Positions 9,788-19,045 of a stretch of DNA of 44,959 nucleotides are shown here, one piece after another; the first letter of the stretch is position 1; each line of letters opens with the position of its first letter. Where the stretch lies: contig JBFKDW010000016.1 in NCBI GenBank assembly GCA_041619515.1, positions 1-44,959 of the forward strand. Direction: 5' to 3'. The notes beneath the pieces are model-generated. The model had not been told where the DNA came from and made no database searches. It saw nothing but the letters and a program-made list of their open reading frames with translations. Origin of the DNA: Acidimicrobiia bacterium. Its GTDB lineage: Bacteria; Actinomycetota; Acidimicrobiia; Spongiisociales; SHLN01. The position numbers and the translations under genes are program-made.

Positions 9788-10588
9788 CTAGGCGGGAACC
9801 ACGTCGGGGCGGCGTTTCATCTCGCCGCTCGGCTCCCCGGTCCCACCGAAGGCAGGGCAGATTTCCTGGAAGGAGCACCAGTCGCACAAACGCGACTGTC
9901 GCGGGGGATAGGACTGGCGGGCTTCAGCCCGGATGATGGCATCCCACAGGGCCCGGACCTGGCGCTCCATGGCGTCGAGCTTCTGGTCGTCGACGTCGAG
10001 TGAGTACATGGTGGGGCCGTTCAAGTAGAGCAGCCGCAACTGCACGGGGGCCCGTCCGAAGTGCTTGCGGGTGAGGAGGGCATAGATCTTCAACGCGAAG
10101 AAGGCGGTGAGAGCGTATCGCTCCGGCGGTGCTTTCCCGGTCTTGTAGTCGGTGACGATGAGGTCGCCGTGCTCGTCCTCGTCGATCCGGTCGAGGATGC
10201 CCCGCACCTGGACTGTGTTGATCTCCTCGAGCAGGTCGAGCTCGCAGTCGACCGGGGCGATCCGGCGAGGATCCTCCACCGAGAAGTAGTTGGCGAGCAG
10301 CTCCATGCTTTCGATGCCCCAGGCGCGCTCCTCCTCGACCGAGGAGAACATGTCCGGGTACTCGACGTCACGGACCTCCGTCCAGGCCTGGCGGAACAAA
10401 TCGAATAGCCGGTCGGGCGTTCGGTTGTCCGCCTCCAGTCCGTAGAGGCGCTGCAAAGCGAGGTGGGCCGTCGTGCCGCGAGCCTGGTACACGGTGGCCG
10501 GCTCCTCGAGCCGATCGATCGCGCGAAACTTGAACAGCTGCGGACACTGCTTGAAGTCACTCAGCCTGCTCGGTGAGACTCGATCCAT
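9788..10588 (-). CDS. Stand-alone PD-(D/E)XK (RecB/Cas4-like) nuclease with probable Fe-S cysteines
   Basis: SPSRLSDFKQCP, RGILDRID, VTDYKTGK, CDWCSFQEICP; ATG 10588 has TATAGT 7 nt upstream. Confidence 0.85.
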   Translation of the reverse strand: MDRVSPSRLSDFKQCPQLFKFRAIDRLEEPATVYQARGTTAHLALQRLYGLEADNRTPDRLFDLFRQAWTEVRDVEYPDMFSSVEEERAWGIESMELLANYFSVEDPRRIAPVDCELDLLEEINTVQVRGILDRIDEDEHGDLIVTDYKTGKAPPERYALTAFFALKIYALLTRKHFGRAPVQLRLLYLNGPTMYSLDVDDQKLDAMERQVRALWDAIIRAEARQSYPPRQSRLCDWCSFQEICPAFGGTGEPSGEMKRRPDVVPA

Positions 10589-10699
10589 ACCCGGCACTAT
10601 ACGGGACCAGAGTGACACGTTTGTAATTACCGCCCGAGTTCCCGTCGAGCCGCCTCCGATATGAAGGCCTGCGGCACCTTCGGTGCACAGGCCGACCTC

Positions 10700-10773
10700 C
10701 GCGAAATCTCGTGCTATGGCGCGAAAATAACCTACGGATCTCATTTGACCGGGAGCGGGAGGGGGCGTACATT
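10700..10773 (+). promoter_or_regulatory. Sigma70-type promoter P1 with upstream tandem CGCGAAA boxes
   Basis: TTGACC 10745-10750, 17-nt spacer, TACATT 10768-10773; CGCGAAA at 10700 and 10720. Same layout as the promoter at 16016-16089. Confidence 0.8.
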
Positions 10774-10780
10774 CATCTGC

Positions 10781-11400
10781 GTCGCCCGGGAAACCGGGTG
10801 CCCCGGCCGGATGTGAGAGCAGAAGGCGGGCTTGCGAATCGAGAGGTTCGTGAGAATCCCGGAAGGGCGAAAGCCCGACCGGGCCTCCGGAGGGGTGTAA
10901 CAGCCTCGGCCGGAGACCTGGGGAGGTGTAAAAGCCCGACCAGGGCCCTGCGATACCGGATCGTGGGGAGTGGTTGCCCGGGCCCCGATCGGGTCAGGCG
11001 GATGCGCTCAGGCGCAGACGACTGCCGGGAAACCACGCCTCGTTCGCCGTCTCGGCGGAGAATGAGGGTTGGCGAGGGTGGAGCCCGAAAGGGTGAGGCC
11101 TCAGCCGACAGCTGATGGCCGCAAGGTCACCAGTCCAGCGACGCTGGAACGTTGGAGCGCAAAACGCTCCGGCGCCGCAAGAGACACGGGCTCACGGGCA
11201 CCGATCTCGGGCGGAAACAGCCGGCACGGCACCCGCAAGGGGGCCGCCCGGCAGCGGAAAGATCCCGAGAGGGTTGAGGTTACGGCCGAGGCTCACTCGG
11301 GATTTCCGCGTGTGTGGGCCCAACATCGGGCACCGAATTCATCGCGATGCTTCGGCGTCCTGATGCGTCTCCCCAGAGACGGCCGCTTGCATTGCGGGAG
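10781..11400 (+). ncRNA. Putative large structured non-coding RNA (about 600 nt), family unassigned
   Basis: Follows P1. Near-continuous stem-loops with loops GAAA 10790, GAGA 10815, GAGA 10841, GAAA 10869, GAAA 11087, GCAA 11121, GCAA 11235, GAGA 11267 and C(UUCG)G 11351. Many G-U pairs and a long-range helix 11188-11196/11313-11321. No credible ORF. Ends are approximate. Confidence 0.7.
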
Positions 11401-11424
11401 CGCCCGATAGAACAATGACGGGAG

Positions 11425-11970
11425 ATGAGAGGTGTCCAAGCCAGCCTGCCGTCTCAGGACGTGGTCGACGGGCTCGGGCCAATGCCCGACCTCGAGCAAC
11501 TGGTTCGCGCTCACTGGGCACCCACCTATCGCGTGGTTGTGGCGCTGGTTCGCGATCATGGCATGGCAGAAGACATCACCCAAGAGTCCCTGCTCAAGGC
11601 GTGGAAAGCCCTTCCCACCTTCCGGGGAGATGCCTCGCTGCGCAACTGGATCCTCCGGATCGCCCACAACACCGCCATATCCGCGCTGCGACGGCGCAAA
11701 CCAGAGTCCAGGGAGCCGTGGAATCTCCCCGAGTCCCTATCCGGCCCTGATGCGTCAGACCTCGTCGCCGACCGGCTCATGATGGAGCAGTTCCAGACGG
11801 CGCTGTCGGCCCTCTCCCCGAGCACGCGGGCCATAGTGGTGTTGCGGGAAGTCGAAGGCCGATCGTATGAGGAGATCGCCGAGATCGTTCGATTGCCGCT
11901 CTCAACGGTGCGGACCCGGCTCTTCCGGGCGCGCAAGGAGCTGGCCATCGCCCTCAAGGGCTGGCGCTGA
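11425..11970 (+). CDS. ECF-family RNA polymerase sigma factor
   Basis: Region 2 AEDITQESLLKAWKALPTFRGDASLRNWILRIAHN; region 4 SYEEIAEIVRLPLSTVRTRLFRAR. The start may instead be 11482. Confidence 0.92.
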   Translation: MRGVQASLPSQDVVDGLGPMPDLEQLVRAHWAPTYRVVVALVRDHGMAEDITQESLLKAWKALPTFRGDASLRNWILRIAHNTAISALRRRKPESREPWNLPESLSGPDASDLVADRLMMEQFQTALSALSPSTRAIVVLREVEGRSYEEIAEIVRLPLSTVRTRLFRARKELAIALKGWR

Positions 11971-12290
11971 TGCCGTGGCTCCATCCCTTCCGCAGACGGC
12001 TCATCGCCTGGGCCGACAATGTCGACGATCCGCGCATCCAGGCGCACGTCGAGCAGTGCGAACGGTGCCTTGGCATCGTCGAGGAGGCGGGAAGATTCGA
12101 TGACATTCCGCTGGGAAACGTGCTCGGAGCGCTGCTACGGGCGCCGGACTCACTGGAAGAGGAGCTGGTGGAGCGCGCCGAGATCGCCAGAAGCAACCGG
12201 GCATCTCTCGAGATTCTCGGGGGCCTCGCCGTCCTGCCGTGGGAGACCCTCCAGCTCATGATCGACCAGCGGAAACCCGCGGATGATTGA
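11970..12290 (+). CDS. Putative zinc-binding anti-sigma factor (ZAS)
   Basis: HVEQCERC matches HxxxCxxC; translationally coupled to the sigma gene. Confidence 0.7.
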   Translation: MPWLHPFRRRLIAWADNVDDPRIQAHVEQCERCLGIVEEAGRFDDIPLGNVLGALLRAPDSLEEELVERAEIARSNRASLEILGGLAVLPWETLQLMIDQRKPADD

Positions 12291-13008
12291 TCGGTGGGTA
12301 TGGGCCGTGCTTGCCATCACGGCCGGCCTGGCGGCCGGCAGTGGGGTTGGATGGCTGGTCAGAAGGCGGCTGCAACGGGAAACCAACCGCCCGGTCTTGC
12401 GTCGCGTCGGCAATGCTTCGGGGGCATTTCTCTTCTGGTTCTTCACTCTGGTCGGGGTGGTGTTTGCCGTCGGGATGGTCAGCCCGGAAACCCTGCGGCC
12501 GCTGCCCCGTCAGGTGCTCGACTACCTGCCTCGCGTGCTGGCAGCCGGCCTCATCGTCATTGGTGGATGGGCGTTGGCGATAGTGGCGTCCAGTGTGCTC
12601 GCCGCCGCCCTCAGCCGGGCGACCGGGCGCCTAGAGCGTGAGTTCGAACGGGTCATCCGATACGCGGTGCTCACCCTGGCGGTCATTCTTTCCCTGGCGC
12701 AGCTTGGGGTGAACGTCACCGTGGTGACGGTGCTGGTCGCCGTCGTCGCGTTGACCCTCGGCGCATCCATCACGATCGTCATCGGGCACGGCGCTCGGCA
12801 GATATCCGGGGAGATCGCGGCCGGCCGCTACCTGCACAGCTTCATCGACGTCGGCGACTATGTGCAAGCGGGCGACTACCAGGGCGTCGTGGTGGGCATC
12901 CATCCCGCCACGCTCGAGCTCGAGGACATCGATGGCGCCAGGATGCATGCCCCCTACAGCAAAGTGCTCTCCGCCGGACCGACGATCCGGCGCAATGCTT
13001 CCTCCTAG
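12283..13008 (+). CDS. Small-conductance mechanosensitive channel-like membrane protein
   Basis: About 5 hydrophobic segments (YLPRVLAAGLIV, LAQLGVNVT) followed by the MscS beta-domain pattern DVGDYVQAGDYQGVVVGI. Confidence 0.7.
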   Translation: MIDRWVWAVLAITAGLAAGSGVGWLVRRRLQRETNRPVLRRVGNASGAFLFWFFTLVGVVFAVGMVSPETLRPLPRQVLDYLPRVLAAGLIVIGGWALAIVASSVLAAALSRATGRLEREFERVIRYAVLTLAVILSLAQLGVNVTVVTVLVAVVALTLGASITIVIGHGARQISGEIAAGRYLHSFIDVGDYVQAGDYQGVVVGIHPATLELEDIDGARMHAPYSKVLSAGPTIRRNASS

Positions 13009-13077
13009 CCGCCCGGTCCGTGGCATATAGAGTTGACGGCCCCGCAGGGCCGTCAACTCGCTGATCTCCTTCGGTTC

Positions 13078-13896
13078 TCAGGTCTCCTGGTCGCCCTTGA
13101 TGACGCCCTTGACACCGTCGACACCGGATGCGGCCACGTCGCGGACCGCGTGCACCGCCGACTCACCGATCTTCTCGGCGGCTTCGAAGGCTCCGGTCGC
13201 AGCCGCCGAGGCGGCGTCTTCGACGCTGAGCCCCACCTTCTTGGCTCCGTCGATGGCGCCACTGAGGGCAGCAGTCGTCACCTTGGTGACGTCGACTCCC
13301 ACCTCGCCGGCCCCGGCTACGAGGCCGCGGGCGGTGCTGCGAACGGTCTCGAGCACGTCGGCGCCCACCTCCTTGGCGCCGTTGACGGCTCCGGACATCG
13401 TGGCCGATGCGGTCCCGATGACATCGCCGCCGAGATCCTTCGCCGAGGTCACGACGGTGTGAGCGAGAGCGTAGGCTCCTTCGCCGAGACCGACGCCGAC
13501 ACTCTGGGTCGTGCTTATGACACCCTCGGCGATCGCCCCCGCCGTCGAGGTGAGGTCCCCGCCTATCTCACCCGACCCTTTCAGGGCGGCCCGGACGGTA
13601 TCCGAGATGACGCCCACCGTAACGGTGGCAACCTCGCCGACGCCCTGCAGCAGACCTACCACCAGGCCCTTGCTGGTCTTGATCAACCCGGTCCCGACCT
13701 CGTTGACGGCTGAGAAGGCGCTGGTGGCTACCTGGGAGAGGACACCGGTGGCCCCGGAGGCTACCTCTCCGGCGCCTTTCAGAGTTGAGACGGTGGCATC
13801 CTTAACGGTCTCGGCGGTGCCTTCCACCACTGCACCGGTGCCACGGAGCACTTTGAGGACTCCGTTCTTAACCTTGGTAACTGGTCCATCTGCCAT
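13078..13896 (-). CDS. Hypothetical 272-aa Gly/Ala/Val/Thr-rich protein made of 22-residue repeats
   Basis: ATG 13896 with GGAGG SD; about 11 tandem 22-aa units such as GAKEVGADVLETVRSTARGLVA. The upstream part of the track ORF is antisense to DUF2332. Confidence 0.8.
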   Translation of the reverse strand: MADGPVTKVKNGVLKVLRGTGAVVEGTAETVKDATVSTLKGAGEVASGATGVLSQVATSAFSAVNEVGTGLIKTSKGLVVGLLQGVGEVATVTVGVISDTVRAALKGSGEIGGDLTSTAGAIAEGVISTTQSVGVGLGEGAYALAHTVVTSAKDLGGDVIGTASATMSGAVNGAKEVGADVLETVRSTARGLVAGAGEVGVDVTKVTTAALSGAIDGAKKVGLSVEDAASAAATGAFEAAEKIGESAVHAVRDVAASGVDGVKGVIKGDQET

Positions 13897-14025
13897 TCGA
13901 CTACCTCCCTGTTGCTGCTGGCCTACCTGGGACGCCTCCGAGCACCCAAACGTCGCGGATTTCGCCGTCAGGGGCCCCCGCGCCGGGCCCAGTAGCCACC
14001 GGGCATCCCCGTGGCACAATACCGG

Positions 14026-15081
14026 ATGGCGGCTTCCGGGGATGGCATATCCATCGCAGAGAGGTTTCGGGAGTTTGCGGTTGCCCTCGCCGACGAGGCA
14101 CCGCTGTATTCGCATTTGTGTGAAGCGATTGTGGGCGACGATGAGCTCCTGGCTCTCGCCGGAGGCGTGCTTCCCGGCCAGCCGCCCCCCAATATGCTGT
14201 TTGCCGCCGTCCAGTTTCTGCTGTCGAACGGCCCGCCTCATCGGCTCGCAGACTGGTACCCGGCACTGTCGGGTGGGCCTCCATCCGGCGGCGACCCCTT
14301 CCCCGTGTTCCGGGAGTTCTGCCTGACCCATCGCGTGGAACTGGCGGAACTGATTGCCTCCCGCCGAACCCAGACCAACGAGGTAGCCCGCTGCCTGGCC
14401 CTGCTGCCCGCCTTCGCCACCGTTGCCGGGAGGGCCGGCCGACCCTTGTCGCTCATCGAGGTCGGGTCGAGCGCCGGGCTGCTGCTCGCCTTCGACCGCT
14501 ACCACTACGAGTACGGGAGCGCCCGGTGGGGTCCTCCGGACGCGCCGCTGCGACTCTCCACAGAGCTCCGTGGTCCGGTGCCACCGCTGCCGGCTGCGGA
14601 CATGCGTATCGCGAGCCGTGTGGGCATCGACCTCCATCCGGTCGACGTCACCGACCCAGTGGAAGTCCGGTGGCTCGATGCACTCGTTTGGCCCGGCCAT
14701 GAGGAACGCCGTGCCCGTCTGCGCCGTGCGATCGATGCGGTTGCGTCCGATCCGCCACCCGTGTTGGCGGCCGATGCTCTCGCCGTGATCGAAGAGTTGA
14801 TCGCAGCTGTGGACGACAGGGCAATGCCGGTGGTGTTCCACAGCTTCGCTCTATTCCAATGGACCTCGGCCCAGCGGGCCGATCTCGAGTCGCTGCTCCG
14901 GGGGGCCCGCCGGCCCGTCACGCGGGTGTCGCTCGAGTGGTTCGGGTATCAGCGAAACCTACCGTTCATCAAGCTGATTCAGTACCAGGGCGGATCCGAG
15001 CAGGTCGAGACCCTGGGCCGTGCCCATCATCACGGGCGCTGGCTGGAGTGGGGGCCGGACGAGGCGATCAGCGGTTCGTAA
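14026..15081 (+). CDS. DUF2332 family protein
   Basis: APLYSHL, RRTQTNEVARC, LIEVGSSAGLLLAFDRY, RVGIDLHP, WLDALVWP, AHHHGRWLEW. Confidence 0.85.
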   Translation: MAASGDGISIAERFREFAVALADEAPLYSHLCEAIVGDDELLALAGGVLPGQPPPNMLFAAVQFLLSNGPPHRLADWYPALSGGPPSGGDPFPVFREFCLTHRVELAELIASRRTQTNEVARCLALLPAFATVAGRAGRPLSLIEVGSSAGLLLAFDRYHYEYGSARWGPPDAPLRLSTELRGPVPPLPAADMRIASRVGIDLHPVDVTDPVEVRWLDALVWPGHEERRARLRRAIDAVASDPPPVLAADALAVIEELIAAVDDRAMPVVFHSFALFQWTSAQRADLESLLRGARRPVTRVSLEWFGYQRNLPFIKLIQYQGGSEQVETLGRAHHHGRWLEWGPDEAISGS

Positions 15082-16015: not shown

Positions 16016-16089
16016 CGCGAAATCTATTTGTAGGGCGCGAAAACTAGGTAGTCCCTGAGTTTGACGGGGGAGTCCGACTGGCGTAGATT
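16016..16089 (+). promoter_or_regulatory. Sigma70-type promoter P2 with upstream tandem CGCGAAA boxes
   Basis: CGCGAAA at 16016 and 16036; TTGACG 16061-16066, 17-nt spacer, TAGATT 16084-16089. Spacings identical to P1. Confidence 0.8.
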
Positions 16090-16096
16090 CGTTTAC

Positions 16097-16374
16097 GTGT
16101 TGGGGGAAACCCCGGCACACTCCAAAGGCCCGCAAGGGCCGGAGGAGCGGCTTCGTCGGGCACCCCGCAAGGGGAACGGCCAAGAGGGCCTTCGGGCTCA
16201 CTCGGACGCTGGCGAAGCCACTACCTCGCCGGACGACTTCGGTCGGCCGGGGAGGTCCCTCACCGGGAGGCTTCGGCCAAACGGAGAGGATCGGAGTGGC
16301 CTTCGGGTCACTTCGGACGGGAGCCCCGGAGGGGCGAAGGTTTCGGCCGACGCTCAACCGGGGCTTTCCGCGTG
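16097..16374 (+). ncRNA. Putative structured non-coding RNA (about 275 nt), family unassigned
   Basis: Eight hairpins, all capped by canonical tetraloops: GAAA 16106, GCAA 16132, GCAA 16167, UUCG 16191, 16238, 16272, 16302 and 16342. Enclosing helices 16149-16157/16211-16219 and 16318-16329/16358-16370. The next gene is convergent, so this is not a 5' UTR. Confidence 0.78.
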
Positions 16375-16446
16375 CCGGGCCGTTCTCGCCCAGGGCCGAC
16401 TCCGATCGTGAGTCTCCCCTCCAGGATGCTGCCGGGCGGCGGGCTC

Positions 16447-18390: not shown

Positions 18391-18445
18391 CCGGCAAGAT
18401 TAGCCCCGAGTGCATGCGGCTTCTGTCGGCCGTAAGATCGCTGGT

Positions 18446-19045
18446 ATGAAGTATCCGGACTCACTACTGAGCGGCGGGGAAGAGATATTGCACGCCTTTC
18501 GCCCGCATTGGAAGTCGCTCGTCATCCCGGCCGCCTGGACGCTCCTGGTCATCGTCGGTCTTGCCCTCGTGCCACGCCTCCCCGACGAGAGCTGGCTGCG
18601 CCTGTCCACCATTGCCATCCTCCTGGTGGGTTGGCTGGTGGTAGCGGTGGTCCCGGCGCTGCGGTGGTGGTTCACCCAGTTCGTCCTGACAAACGAGCGC
18701 CTCGTGCTCCGCAAGGGGATCGTGGCTCGCAGCGGCGTGGAGATTCCGCTCGAGGTCATCAACGACGTCATCTTCTCGCAGACCGTCTTCGAGCGGCTGC
18801 TCGGCTTCGGCGATCTGATCATCGAGTCGGCAGGTGAAATGGGACAGAGCCGCTTCTCCAATATCCCCAATCCCGACGGCTTTCAGGCCGAGCTCTACCG
18901 GGTCCGCGAGGACCGGGCTCGGGCTCTCACCACTGCGGAGGCGCCTTCCGACACCCTGGCCACCCTCGCCCGCCTCCATGCCGATGGAGTCCTCACCGAC
19001 GAGGAGTTCGCCTCCAAGAAGGCAAAGCTCCTCGACGAGATCTAG
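18446..19045 (+). CDS. Membrane protein with bacterial PH domain and C-terminal SHOCT
   Basis: RPHW, 2 TM segments, FVLTNERLVLRKGI, ERLLGFGDLIIESAG, LARLHADGVLTDEEFASKKAKLL. Confidence 0.85.
   Translation: MKYPDSLLSGGEEILHAFRPHWKSLVIPAAWTLLVIVGLALVPRLPDESWLRLSTIAILLVGWLVVAVVPALRWWFTQFVLTNERLVLRKGIVARSGVEIPLEVINDVIFSQTVFERLLGFGDLIIESAGEMGQSRFSNIPNPDGFQAELYRVREDRARALTTAEAPSDTLATLARLHADGVLTDEEFASKKAKLLDEI

Follow-up and report, generated by a model that had tools for sequence, protein, structure and literature searches.

A stretch of 44,959 nucleotides (nt) from an Acidimicrobiia bacterium (GenBank assembly GCA_041619515.1, contig JBFKDW010000016.1, positions 1 to 44,959 of the forward strand; referred to as the window in the following) very probably carries, at positions 10781–11311 of the plus strand, an independent gene for a highly structured non-coding RNA (ncRNA) of ~530 nt, here termed RNA A. 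A second and shorter member, RNA B, lies further downstream, and both share an upstream promoter element and a near-invariant 3′ hairpin with RNAs of quite different body. As judged from their sequences, these bodies, together with the promoter, a 5′-terminal GNRA hairpin and the 3′ hairpin, define a previously undescribed RNA family of one Acidimicrobiia order; we found no description of it in the literature searched, which excluded most subscription journals.

RNA A is located in the 836-nt intergenic gap between the start of a PD-(D/E)XK nuclease gene (10588) and that of an extracytoplasmic function (ECF) sigma factor gene (11425). The original prediction, made from the letters of the window, had described 10781–11400 as an uncharacterised large structured ncRNA or else as a very long leader of the sigma factor gene. 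We delineate the unit as follows:

10700..10726, plus strand: two CGCGAAA boxes (10700–10706 and 10720–10726), the family's upstream promoter element
10745..10773, plus strand: sigma-70-type promoter, TTGACC (10745–10750), 17-nt spacer, TACATT (10768–10773); found by promoter scan and conserved
10781..11311, plus strand: structured ncRNA of type A, ~531 nt, assigned from folding z-score, covariation, conservation and lack of coding character
10783..10800, plus strand: 5′-terminal GNRA (GAAA) hairpin at the predicted 5′ end, consensus helices 2 and 3
10858..10944, plus strand: variable array of three short hairpin modules (10858–10883, 10885–10915, 10917–10944), seen in the type A alignment
11151..11311, plus strand: 3′ domain, for which BLAST also has matches in another genus of the family, at 78% identity
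11257..11313, plus strand: family-defining terminal hairpin, terminator-like and near-invariant in sequence (covariance model R1, 61.8 bits, E 1.1e-14)
11314..11424, plus strand: non-conserved spacer ahead of the sigma factor gene, which contains gatgc-TTCG-gcgtc and aligns with no relative

The folding z-score, which had been put forward as a check on the original prediction, lies far below that of shuffled sequence. The 620-nt stretch 10781–11400 reaches a minimum free energy of −345.4 kcal/mol on the plus strand, versus −289.8 ± 6.7 kcal/mol in 20 dinucleotide shuffles (z −8.28), and folds more weakly on the minus strand (−292.4 kcal/mol, z −4.53); in the refined unit, 10781–11312, z falls to −9.78 and none of 100 shuffles folds equally well. 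The plus strand is also purine-rich, with a GC skew of about +0.19 and an AT skew of +0.16 to +0.40 over 10700–11300.

This fold is backed by covariation. From an alignment of 10 type A RNAs of 10 related species (A2), RNAalifold derives a consensus of 155 pairs, of which 43 show compensatory changes; a scripted consensus contains 170 pairs in 24 helices. Standard pairs occupy 95.3% of 1639 alignment cells, compared to 32–47% when the 3′ partners are slid by 1–3 columns. Likewise, 44 pairs have changed on both sides, versus 3–12 in the slid alignments and 17.4 ± 3.1 in shuffled ones, and this number is reached in none of 500 shuffles. Nearly all sequences and hairpins listed in the original prediction were located where it had placed them, and most recur as helices of the covariation-supported consensus: the hairpins at 10783–10800 and 10831–10854, gggc-GAAA-gccc, gccc-GAAA-gggt, tggcc-GCAA-ggtca, cgttggagcg-caaaa-cgctccggcg and ccc-GCAA-ggg, as well as the enclosing helix gcggaaa/tttccgc (11254–11260/11303–11309). 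Three elements have to be given up. In place of gatccc-GAGA-gggtt, covariation favours a long hairpin AUCCCGAG...CUCGGGAU with the inner helix GGGU/GCUC; the helix gggctcacg/tgtgggccc needs bases past 11311, where conservation ends in all relatives; and the hairpin gatgc-TTCG-gcgtc (11346–11359) lies wholly beyond that limit.

The extent of the unit follows from its conservation. RNA A is present in a single copy in its own assembly and has BLAST matches in 19 of 41 genomes, a set made up of its own genome and 40 relatives (among them the unpublished G017 and G028, neither of which matched). All seven other genomes of the genus match over roughly 10699–11311 of the window with 73–83% identity. 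In a second genus, two genomes (G009 and G011) match over the last ~160 nt (11151–11311; query positions 552–712) with 78% identity, and in genomes of other families the match is confined to ~48 nt (11264–11311). Within the transcript region, conservation begins at G10781, next to the predicted transcription start at ~10779–10781, and it stops at 11311 with the sequence ...CUCGGGAUUUCCGCG(U); a search of the following 113 nt for similarity to relatives found nothing that aligns. The true unit consequently ends near 11311, short of the 11400 originally proposed. Between its ends, the number of short hairpin modules depends on the species, with three in the window and ~1 to 7 in relatives (A2 columns 101–283). 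In one relative (L005), Tandem Repeats Finder recognizes these modules as a tandem repeat (period 56, 2.9 copies, 81% matches); it reported no repeat in the window's own module region.

A coding signal in the overlapping open reading frames (ORFs), which the original prediction had named as speaking against it, was looked for and not seen. Relative to the window, most indels have a length not divisible by three (for example 6 of 7, 9 of 11 and 13 of 14), neither of the two long ORFs in the RNA A region has an excess of third-position substitutions, and four overlapping ORFs match no Pfam family. On these grounds, we reject the ORFs 10711–11115, 11069–11410 and 10773–11036 (minus strand) as genes. 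This corrects the annotation to be expected here, as ORF callers will place spurious genes of 80–130 amino acids on the RNA A stretch.

RNA A resembles no catalogued RNA either. At gathering thresholds, Rfam 15 has no match in the 44,959-base window, including its models of large RNAs (OLE, GOLLD, ROOL, HEARO, raiA), and none in 20 related loci (105,796 bases). At E-values up to 10, the region 10500–11600 yields three matches at chance level, the best of them P33 with 18.9 bits against a threshold of 45. Given the folding z-score, the covariation, the lack of a coding signal and the lack of an Rfam match, the description as an uncharacterised large structured ncRNA stands.

A constant frame around variable bodies

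What unites the family is its frame. The terminal hairpin, modelled as R1, is laid out as YCCCGAG-A-GGGY, with a tandem G·A and a 3-base-pair (bp) stem capped by a tetraloop (UUAC in RNA A, UUCG in most members), followed by CUCAC-CUCGGGR and UUUCCGCG. In an alignment of 124 terminal elements (A3), 97.6% of cells are paired, compared to 27–67% when slid. Five pairs covary, namely the first outer pair (C-G 90, U-A 24), the one below it, pairs of the inner helix (C-G 52, U-G 45, U-A 24) and of the apical 3-bp stem. By contrast, CCCGAG/CUCGGG and GGG are almost invariant, the invariant bases being CCCGAGAGGG/CUCGGG, and one G·U pair is kept in 123 of the 124 elements. This kept G·U pair and the asymmetry between the strands argue for selection on RNA rather than DNA, as had been proposed from the strand specificity of the G·U pairs and loops. 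As for the U-tract terminator that the original prediction did not see, a simple terminator scan calls none, but the conserved 3′ hairpin followed by UUU(C/U) looks terminator-like.

At the other end, TTGACC/TACATT is the sole promoter-like site in 10500–11500, where 0.1 would be expected. The layout is common to the relatives: CGCGAAA, 13–14 nt, CGCGAAA(AC), a TTGAC at 24 nt from the first base of box 2, a spacer of 17–18 nt and a TAnnnT −10 box. The 136 two-box sites in the loci we fetched keep a constant spacing of 14 or 15 nt, and in 109 of them TTG follows box 2 at 24 nt. Of 41 genomes of the order, 39 contain the pattern, one of them as many as seven times, and none contains the reversed control; most matches of the pattern fall in arrays of these RNAs. 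The boxes are nearly private to the RNA genes of the family, and we presume that the element is the binding site of a regulator.

We assigned a unit to the family if R1 scores at least 40 bits, the two-box pattern lies ~100–650 nt before the hairpin, and TTGAC follows 24 nt after box 2. Unit A has boxes at 10700–10726, TTGACC at 10745 and an R1 score of 61.8 bits; unit B has boxes at 16016–16042, TTGACG at 16061 and 54.3 bits. These are exactly the two places in the genome that R1 finds (11257–11313 and 16318–16375). The second one is organised as follows:

16016..16375, plus strand: RNA B unit (type B), assigned by promoter and R1, with boxes (16016–16042), TTGACG (16061–16066) and TAGATT (16084–16089)
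~16096..16375, plus strand: RNA B transcript as predicted, ~280 nt, with the terminal hairpin at 16318–16375

RNA B likewise folds far better than chance (z −6.28), is 88–90% identical to homologs in four related loci (L003, L005, L024, L026) and repeats the AGAGGG...CUCAC motif internally in a shorter form.

Across the class, we searched 151 genomes with R1 (the own genome, 36 others of the same order and 114 of other orders) and found matches in 46. Apart from the own genome, these are 35 of the 36 genomes of the order, with one to five copies each (E 2.5e-7 to 9e-21), and 10 of the 114 from other orders, where matches are weak (E 2e-8 to 5e-4). From the side of the neighbouring nuclease, whose profile (A1) we used to fetch 80 loci, R1 scores at least 40 bits in 73, and in four of the seven loci missed the DNA available upstream is shorter than 800 nt. 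Nearly all R1 matches are on the strand opposite to the nuclease gene and upstream of it, usually as tandem copies divergent from it, and a genome carries one to five copies, or more. In other genera, up to five units are lined up without an intervening ORF, and the same promoter and 3′ hairpin enclose bodies that differ widely, frequently with two or more such units in succession.

We extracted 117 distinct units, which measure 94–643 nt when counted from the predicted start up to the hairpin. Their bodies, ~50–600 nt long, are built of stable hairpins with cUUCGg or GNRA caps; they change fast, gain and lose modules, barely align between genera and, without the hairpin, fall into at least 27 BLAST clusters. 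In 116 bodies, CTTCGG occurs 283 times versus 24 expected and CGCAAG 109 times versus 10.6 expected, and GAAA-type loops are enriched as well. In the three further subfamilies whose fold we predicted, three to six hairpins follow in a chain headed by a G-rich GNRA hairpin, and a hairpin of this kind, similar to that at the 5′ end of RNA A, opens most other family members inspected.

The boxes reach further than the hairpin. Class-wide, the two-box pattern is found in 74 of the 151 genomes. In one sister family with AT-rich genomes of ~1 Mb (f16), it occurs in 32 of 35 sampled genomes, mostly as a single site, which in nine inspected loci (L248–L256) lies between rpmH and dnaA, ~200 nt before dnaA. 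Because the pattern is class-wide and includes this spacer, we take the box element to be older than the hairpin family and to be tied to a growth-related locus in the sister lineage. The f16 element has the form CGCGAAA-N13-CGCGAAA, as TTCGCGAAA, with a palindromic core, and in some of these loci a short hairpin and a U run in the rpmH-dnaA spacer may mark a tiny RNA. The region upstream of dnaA in the own genome has no strict two-box site.

An exact search for CGCGAAA-N13/14-CGCGAAA in the own genome yields five sites. One lies before RNA A, one before RNA B and one inside a coding region on contig C27. On contig C19 (7841–8050, plus strand), a two-box site is followed by a candidate RNA of ~95 nt whose 3′ end is formed by a common GC-rich terminator hairpin instead of the family hairpin. 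On contig C68 (1060–1087, minus strand), the site precedes by ~100 nt a gene whose product has an N-terminus resembling a signal peptide; this gene is the only protein-coding candidate for a box regulon seen in this genome.

Two other origins were considered and rejected. For a phage or mobile origin, the hairpin pattern occurs in 99 viral stretches; none of the 80 that were fetched exceeds 23.2 bits with R1, compared to 40–82 bits for true family members, and we attribute these occurrences to chance. Nor are these RNAs housekeeping RNAs in disguise: RNase P RNA is found on contig C66 (291 bits) and transfer-messenger RNA on C44 (168 bits), and the signal recognition particle (SRP) RNA lies on contigs other than those of the arrays in 28 of 31 genomes, a count that includes the own genome and the unpublished G017 and G028. 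The models of the small and large bacterial SRP RNA have no match in the own assembly, which is 95.65% complete; as the small SRP RNA is present in relatives, the lack of a match probably reflects a gap in the assembly.

Genes around the RNAs

The genes next to the two RNAs in the window are the following:

9788..10588, minus strand: PD-(D/E)XK (Cas4/RecB-like) nuclease gene (Pfam PF12705, E 4.2e-37), divergent from RNA A
11425..11970, plus strand: ECF sigma factor gene (Pfam Sigma70_r2 and r4_2), not part of the RNA unit
11970–12290: putative anti-sigma factor gene, no Pfam match
12283–13008: membrane-protein gene
14011–15081: DUF2332 gene

The nuclease gene is a conserved positional neighbour of the RNA family. 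In tblastn searches of 19 related loci (L002–L020), it stands beside the RNA in 17 and the sigma factor gene in none. Its start is best placed at the ATG at 10588, rather than at 10744, because the resulting N-terminus, MDRVSPSRLSDFKQCPQLFKF, is conserved in relatives. Just upstream of this start, within 10596–10629, a 30-nt stretch is 90–100% identical across the genus. Read on the minus strand, it places TATAGT at a distance of 7 nt from the ATG, a hint that the nuclease mRNA is nearly leaderless, and it also includes a palindrome, GTGTCAC, as a possible operator.

The sigma factor gene is a local peculiarity. Among loci L001–L100, its protein has three tblastn matches: the window's own locus (L001) and two weak ones (L045 and L099; 31–35% identity) that are not beside the RNA. 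In three other species of the genus (L002/L027, L007/L025 and L022), it is DUF2332 that comes next downstream of the RNA; within the window, at 11425–13900, genes for the sigma factor, the putative anti-sigma factor and a membrane protein stand between RNA A and DUF2332, an arrangement seen only in the own genome. Because DUF2332 follows the RNA in other species, this block looks like an insertion into a conserved RNA-DUF2332 arrangement. RNA B, beyond the block, lies 4.8 kb after RNA A here and 1.3–1.5 kb after it in two relatives. The spacer before the sigma factor gene contains a GAAT-N17-CGTC motif (11335–11359), which we take to resemble an ECF-type promoter.

A scan of 30 of 49 candidate ORFs downstream of the arrays brought up no conserved gene; the domains encountered were bPH_2 with SHOCT (6 of 30), AMP-binding (5 of 30) and Peptidase_M24 (3 of 30). 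A bPH_2 and SHOCT gene also lies in the window at 18410–19045 (plus strand), 2 kb after RNA B, with counterparts in L031, L047, L050, L051, L056 and L064.

Possible function and relation to known RNAs

Taken as a package, we favour with moderate confidence the view that these are stable, protein-bound, trans-acting regulatory RNAs recognised via their 3′ hairpin. In this scheme, a DNA-binding factor at the boxes would switch on all copies together, and transcription would end at the 3′ hairpin. Capped at both ends and built of hairpins throughout, the RNA would be long-lived. Since the 3′ hairpin is the part under sequence-specific selection, it would be the recognition handle, with its A·A/C mismatch, G·U pair and tandem G·A, most likely for a protein or else for another RNA, and the body would be a tolerant scaffold or decoy. 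Recognition via the hairpin, as proposed, would therefore imply a role in trans, in which the RNAs, bound to protein, are regulators, sponges or scaffolds and not the leader of a neighbouring gene.

Several points weigh against this view. Both ends of RNA A, and the existence of its transcript, are predicted from sequence, and its protein partner is putative. Behind the hairpin stand no more than 3–5 U, a short run that the simple terminator scan does not call; given this weakness, RNA A may be read through into the downstream genes. Furthermore, the invariance of the hairpin could stem from a processing site or an RNA-RNA contact instead of a protein. Familiar partners are missing from the own genome at its 95.65% completeness: Hfq, a known partner of RNA sponges, was not found, CsrA (PF02599), likewise a sponge partner, has no match, and neither has the Ro60/Rsr TROVE domain (PF05731), on whose gene, in most cases a direct neighbour, an assignment as bacterial Y RNA would rest. 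Finally, the bodies contain no repeated loop motif of the CsrA-GGA kind, as a multi-site sponge would, their enriched words being stable tetraloops.

A bolder version of this view is a tentative possibility that we consider doubtful at present. It holds that the RNAs form a new modular class, in which a dedicated protein grips the invariant 3′ hairpin, the body can lengthen, shorten and diverge as a tunable load, scaffold or decoy, and the whole set is switched by a regulator that, in the sister lineage with ~1-Mb genomes, occupies the rpmH-dnaA spacer; this would amount to a growth- or replication-linked RNA system without counterpart among known RNA families.

Independently of the mechanism, the family turns up in almost all genomes sampled from an entire order, often in several copies, and the members of this order are abundant, mostly uncultured Actinomycetota of marine, soil and wastewater habitats. 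To our knowledge, there are few large or widespread structured bacterial RNAs of obscure role, and each of them has opened new biology. The evolutionary pattern is also unusual, with a frozen promoter element and 3′ hairpin around a body that is free to change. The family offers three practical handles: the 58-nt hairpin as a bait for the partner, the 27-bp two-box DNA as a bait for the regulator, and the covariance model for genome annotation.

Sibling small RNAs (sRNAs) such as Qrr, LhrC and the CiaR-dependent csRNAs are ~100-nt base-pairing RNAs with a conserved seed. Understood in this way, each copy would act in trans by pairing with mRNAs through a short unpaired seed, the promoter boxes would unite the copies in one regulon, and the 3′ hairpin would only be a terminator. 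The organisation is indeed alike, as Qrr1–5, LhrC1–5 and the csRNAs also come as tandem or multiple paralogs that all carry identical regulator-type boxes as well as a terminator, and in our own reading the 3′ arm CUCCCUC resembles an anti-Shine-Dalgarno sequence. We nevertheless regard this explanation as unlikely: the bodies here are almost fully paired under UUCG and GNRA caps, with no conserved single-stranded seed shared across their at least 27 clusters, their lengths of 94–643 nt are untypical at the upper end, no Hfq was found in the own genome, and a mere terminator needs no near-invariant sequence across an order.

Very unlikely, in our judgement, is a functional analogue of 6S RNA or Ms1, that is, an abundant RNA that binds RNA polymerase and exerts growth-phase control. 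Like these ncRNAs of high-GC Gram-positive bacteria, the family has a strong promoter of its own. According to the accessible text of PMC9130861, 6S is generally absent from Actinobacteria, where Ms1 fills a related role; the 6S model RF00013 finds nothing in the own genome. The two-box element between rpmH and dnaA in the ~1-Mb sister family, moreover, hints at growth-linked control. Against this, type A and the three other folded subfamilies are chains of hairpins with small multiloops and not a long rod with a central bubble, which in 6S mimics an open promoter, and one to five copies of variable length are unlike 6S or Ms1. In the same accessible text, Ms1 is identified across Actinobacteria by its context of HAD-IB hydrolase and oxidoreductase genes and is held among the Rfam families; our RNAs are flanked by nuclease, DUF2332, sigma factor or bPH_2 genes, and the all-Rfam scan of the window matched nothing. 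On its flanks (nuclease and ECF sigma factor, in relatives DUF2332) and its fold, we thus reject Ms1 itself. The accessible part of a 2026 preprint (10.64898/2026.07.10.737749) does not mention Acidimicrobiia.

It is just as improbable that RNA A is a large architectural RNA of the OLE, GOLLD, ROOL or raiA kind, a defined three-dimensional object, perhaps a multimer, of which the short relatives would be minimal versions. Type A shares with these RNAs and HEARO a length above 500 nt, many covarying helices (~24 here) and many GNRA loops able to dock into receptors, and its purine-rich composition is typical of structured RNAs. Yet its body is conserved in one genus and partly in a second, with hairpin modules gained and lost freely, the consensus has no tetraloop-receptor or long-range pairing, and no Rfam large-RNA model matches. 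Past the level of genus or family, what stays conserved is the promoter and the 3′ hairpin, and not the body.

That RNA A is a very long structured 5′ leader and cis-regulator of the ECF sigma factor gene, the alternative offered by the original prediction, is barely conceivable: its location on the same strand, 113 nt upstream and with no strong U-tract terminator in a simple scan, would suit a leader, but this reading fails because the sigma factor gene lies downstream of the RNA in the own genome only, with DUF2332 in its place in three species, and conservation ends 113 nt short of the sigma start, the RNA has its own promoter and conserved terminal hairpin, comparable units form arrays without an ORF between them, and the sigma factor gene may have an ECF-type promoter of its own in the spacer.

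Returning to the favoured view of protein-bound, trans-acting RNAs, counterparts in organisation are the protein-sponge RNAs RsmX/RsmY/RsmZ and CsrB/CsrC of Gammaproteobacteria. These, too, are paralogs, several to a genome and sometimes in tandem, whose length varies with the number of hairpin modules, with a conserved upstream element before an ordinary promoter, a terminator-like 3′ hairpin and fast divergence outside their motifs. They differ in that our RNAs bear UUCG and GNRA loops without a repeated GGA loop, come from a genome without a CsrA gene and have no relation to them in sequence or in Rfam. Instead of many binding sites, each RNA of the present family displays one conserved 3′ hairpin.

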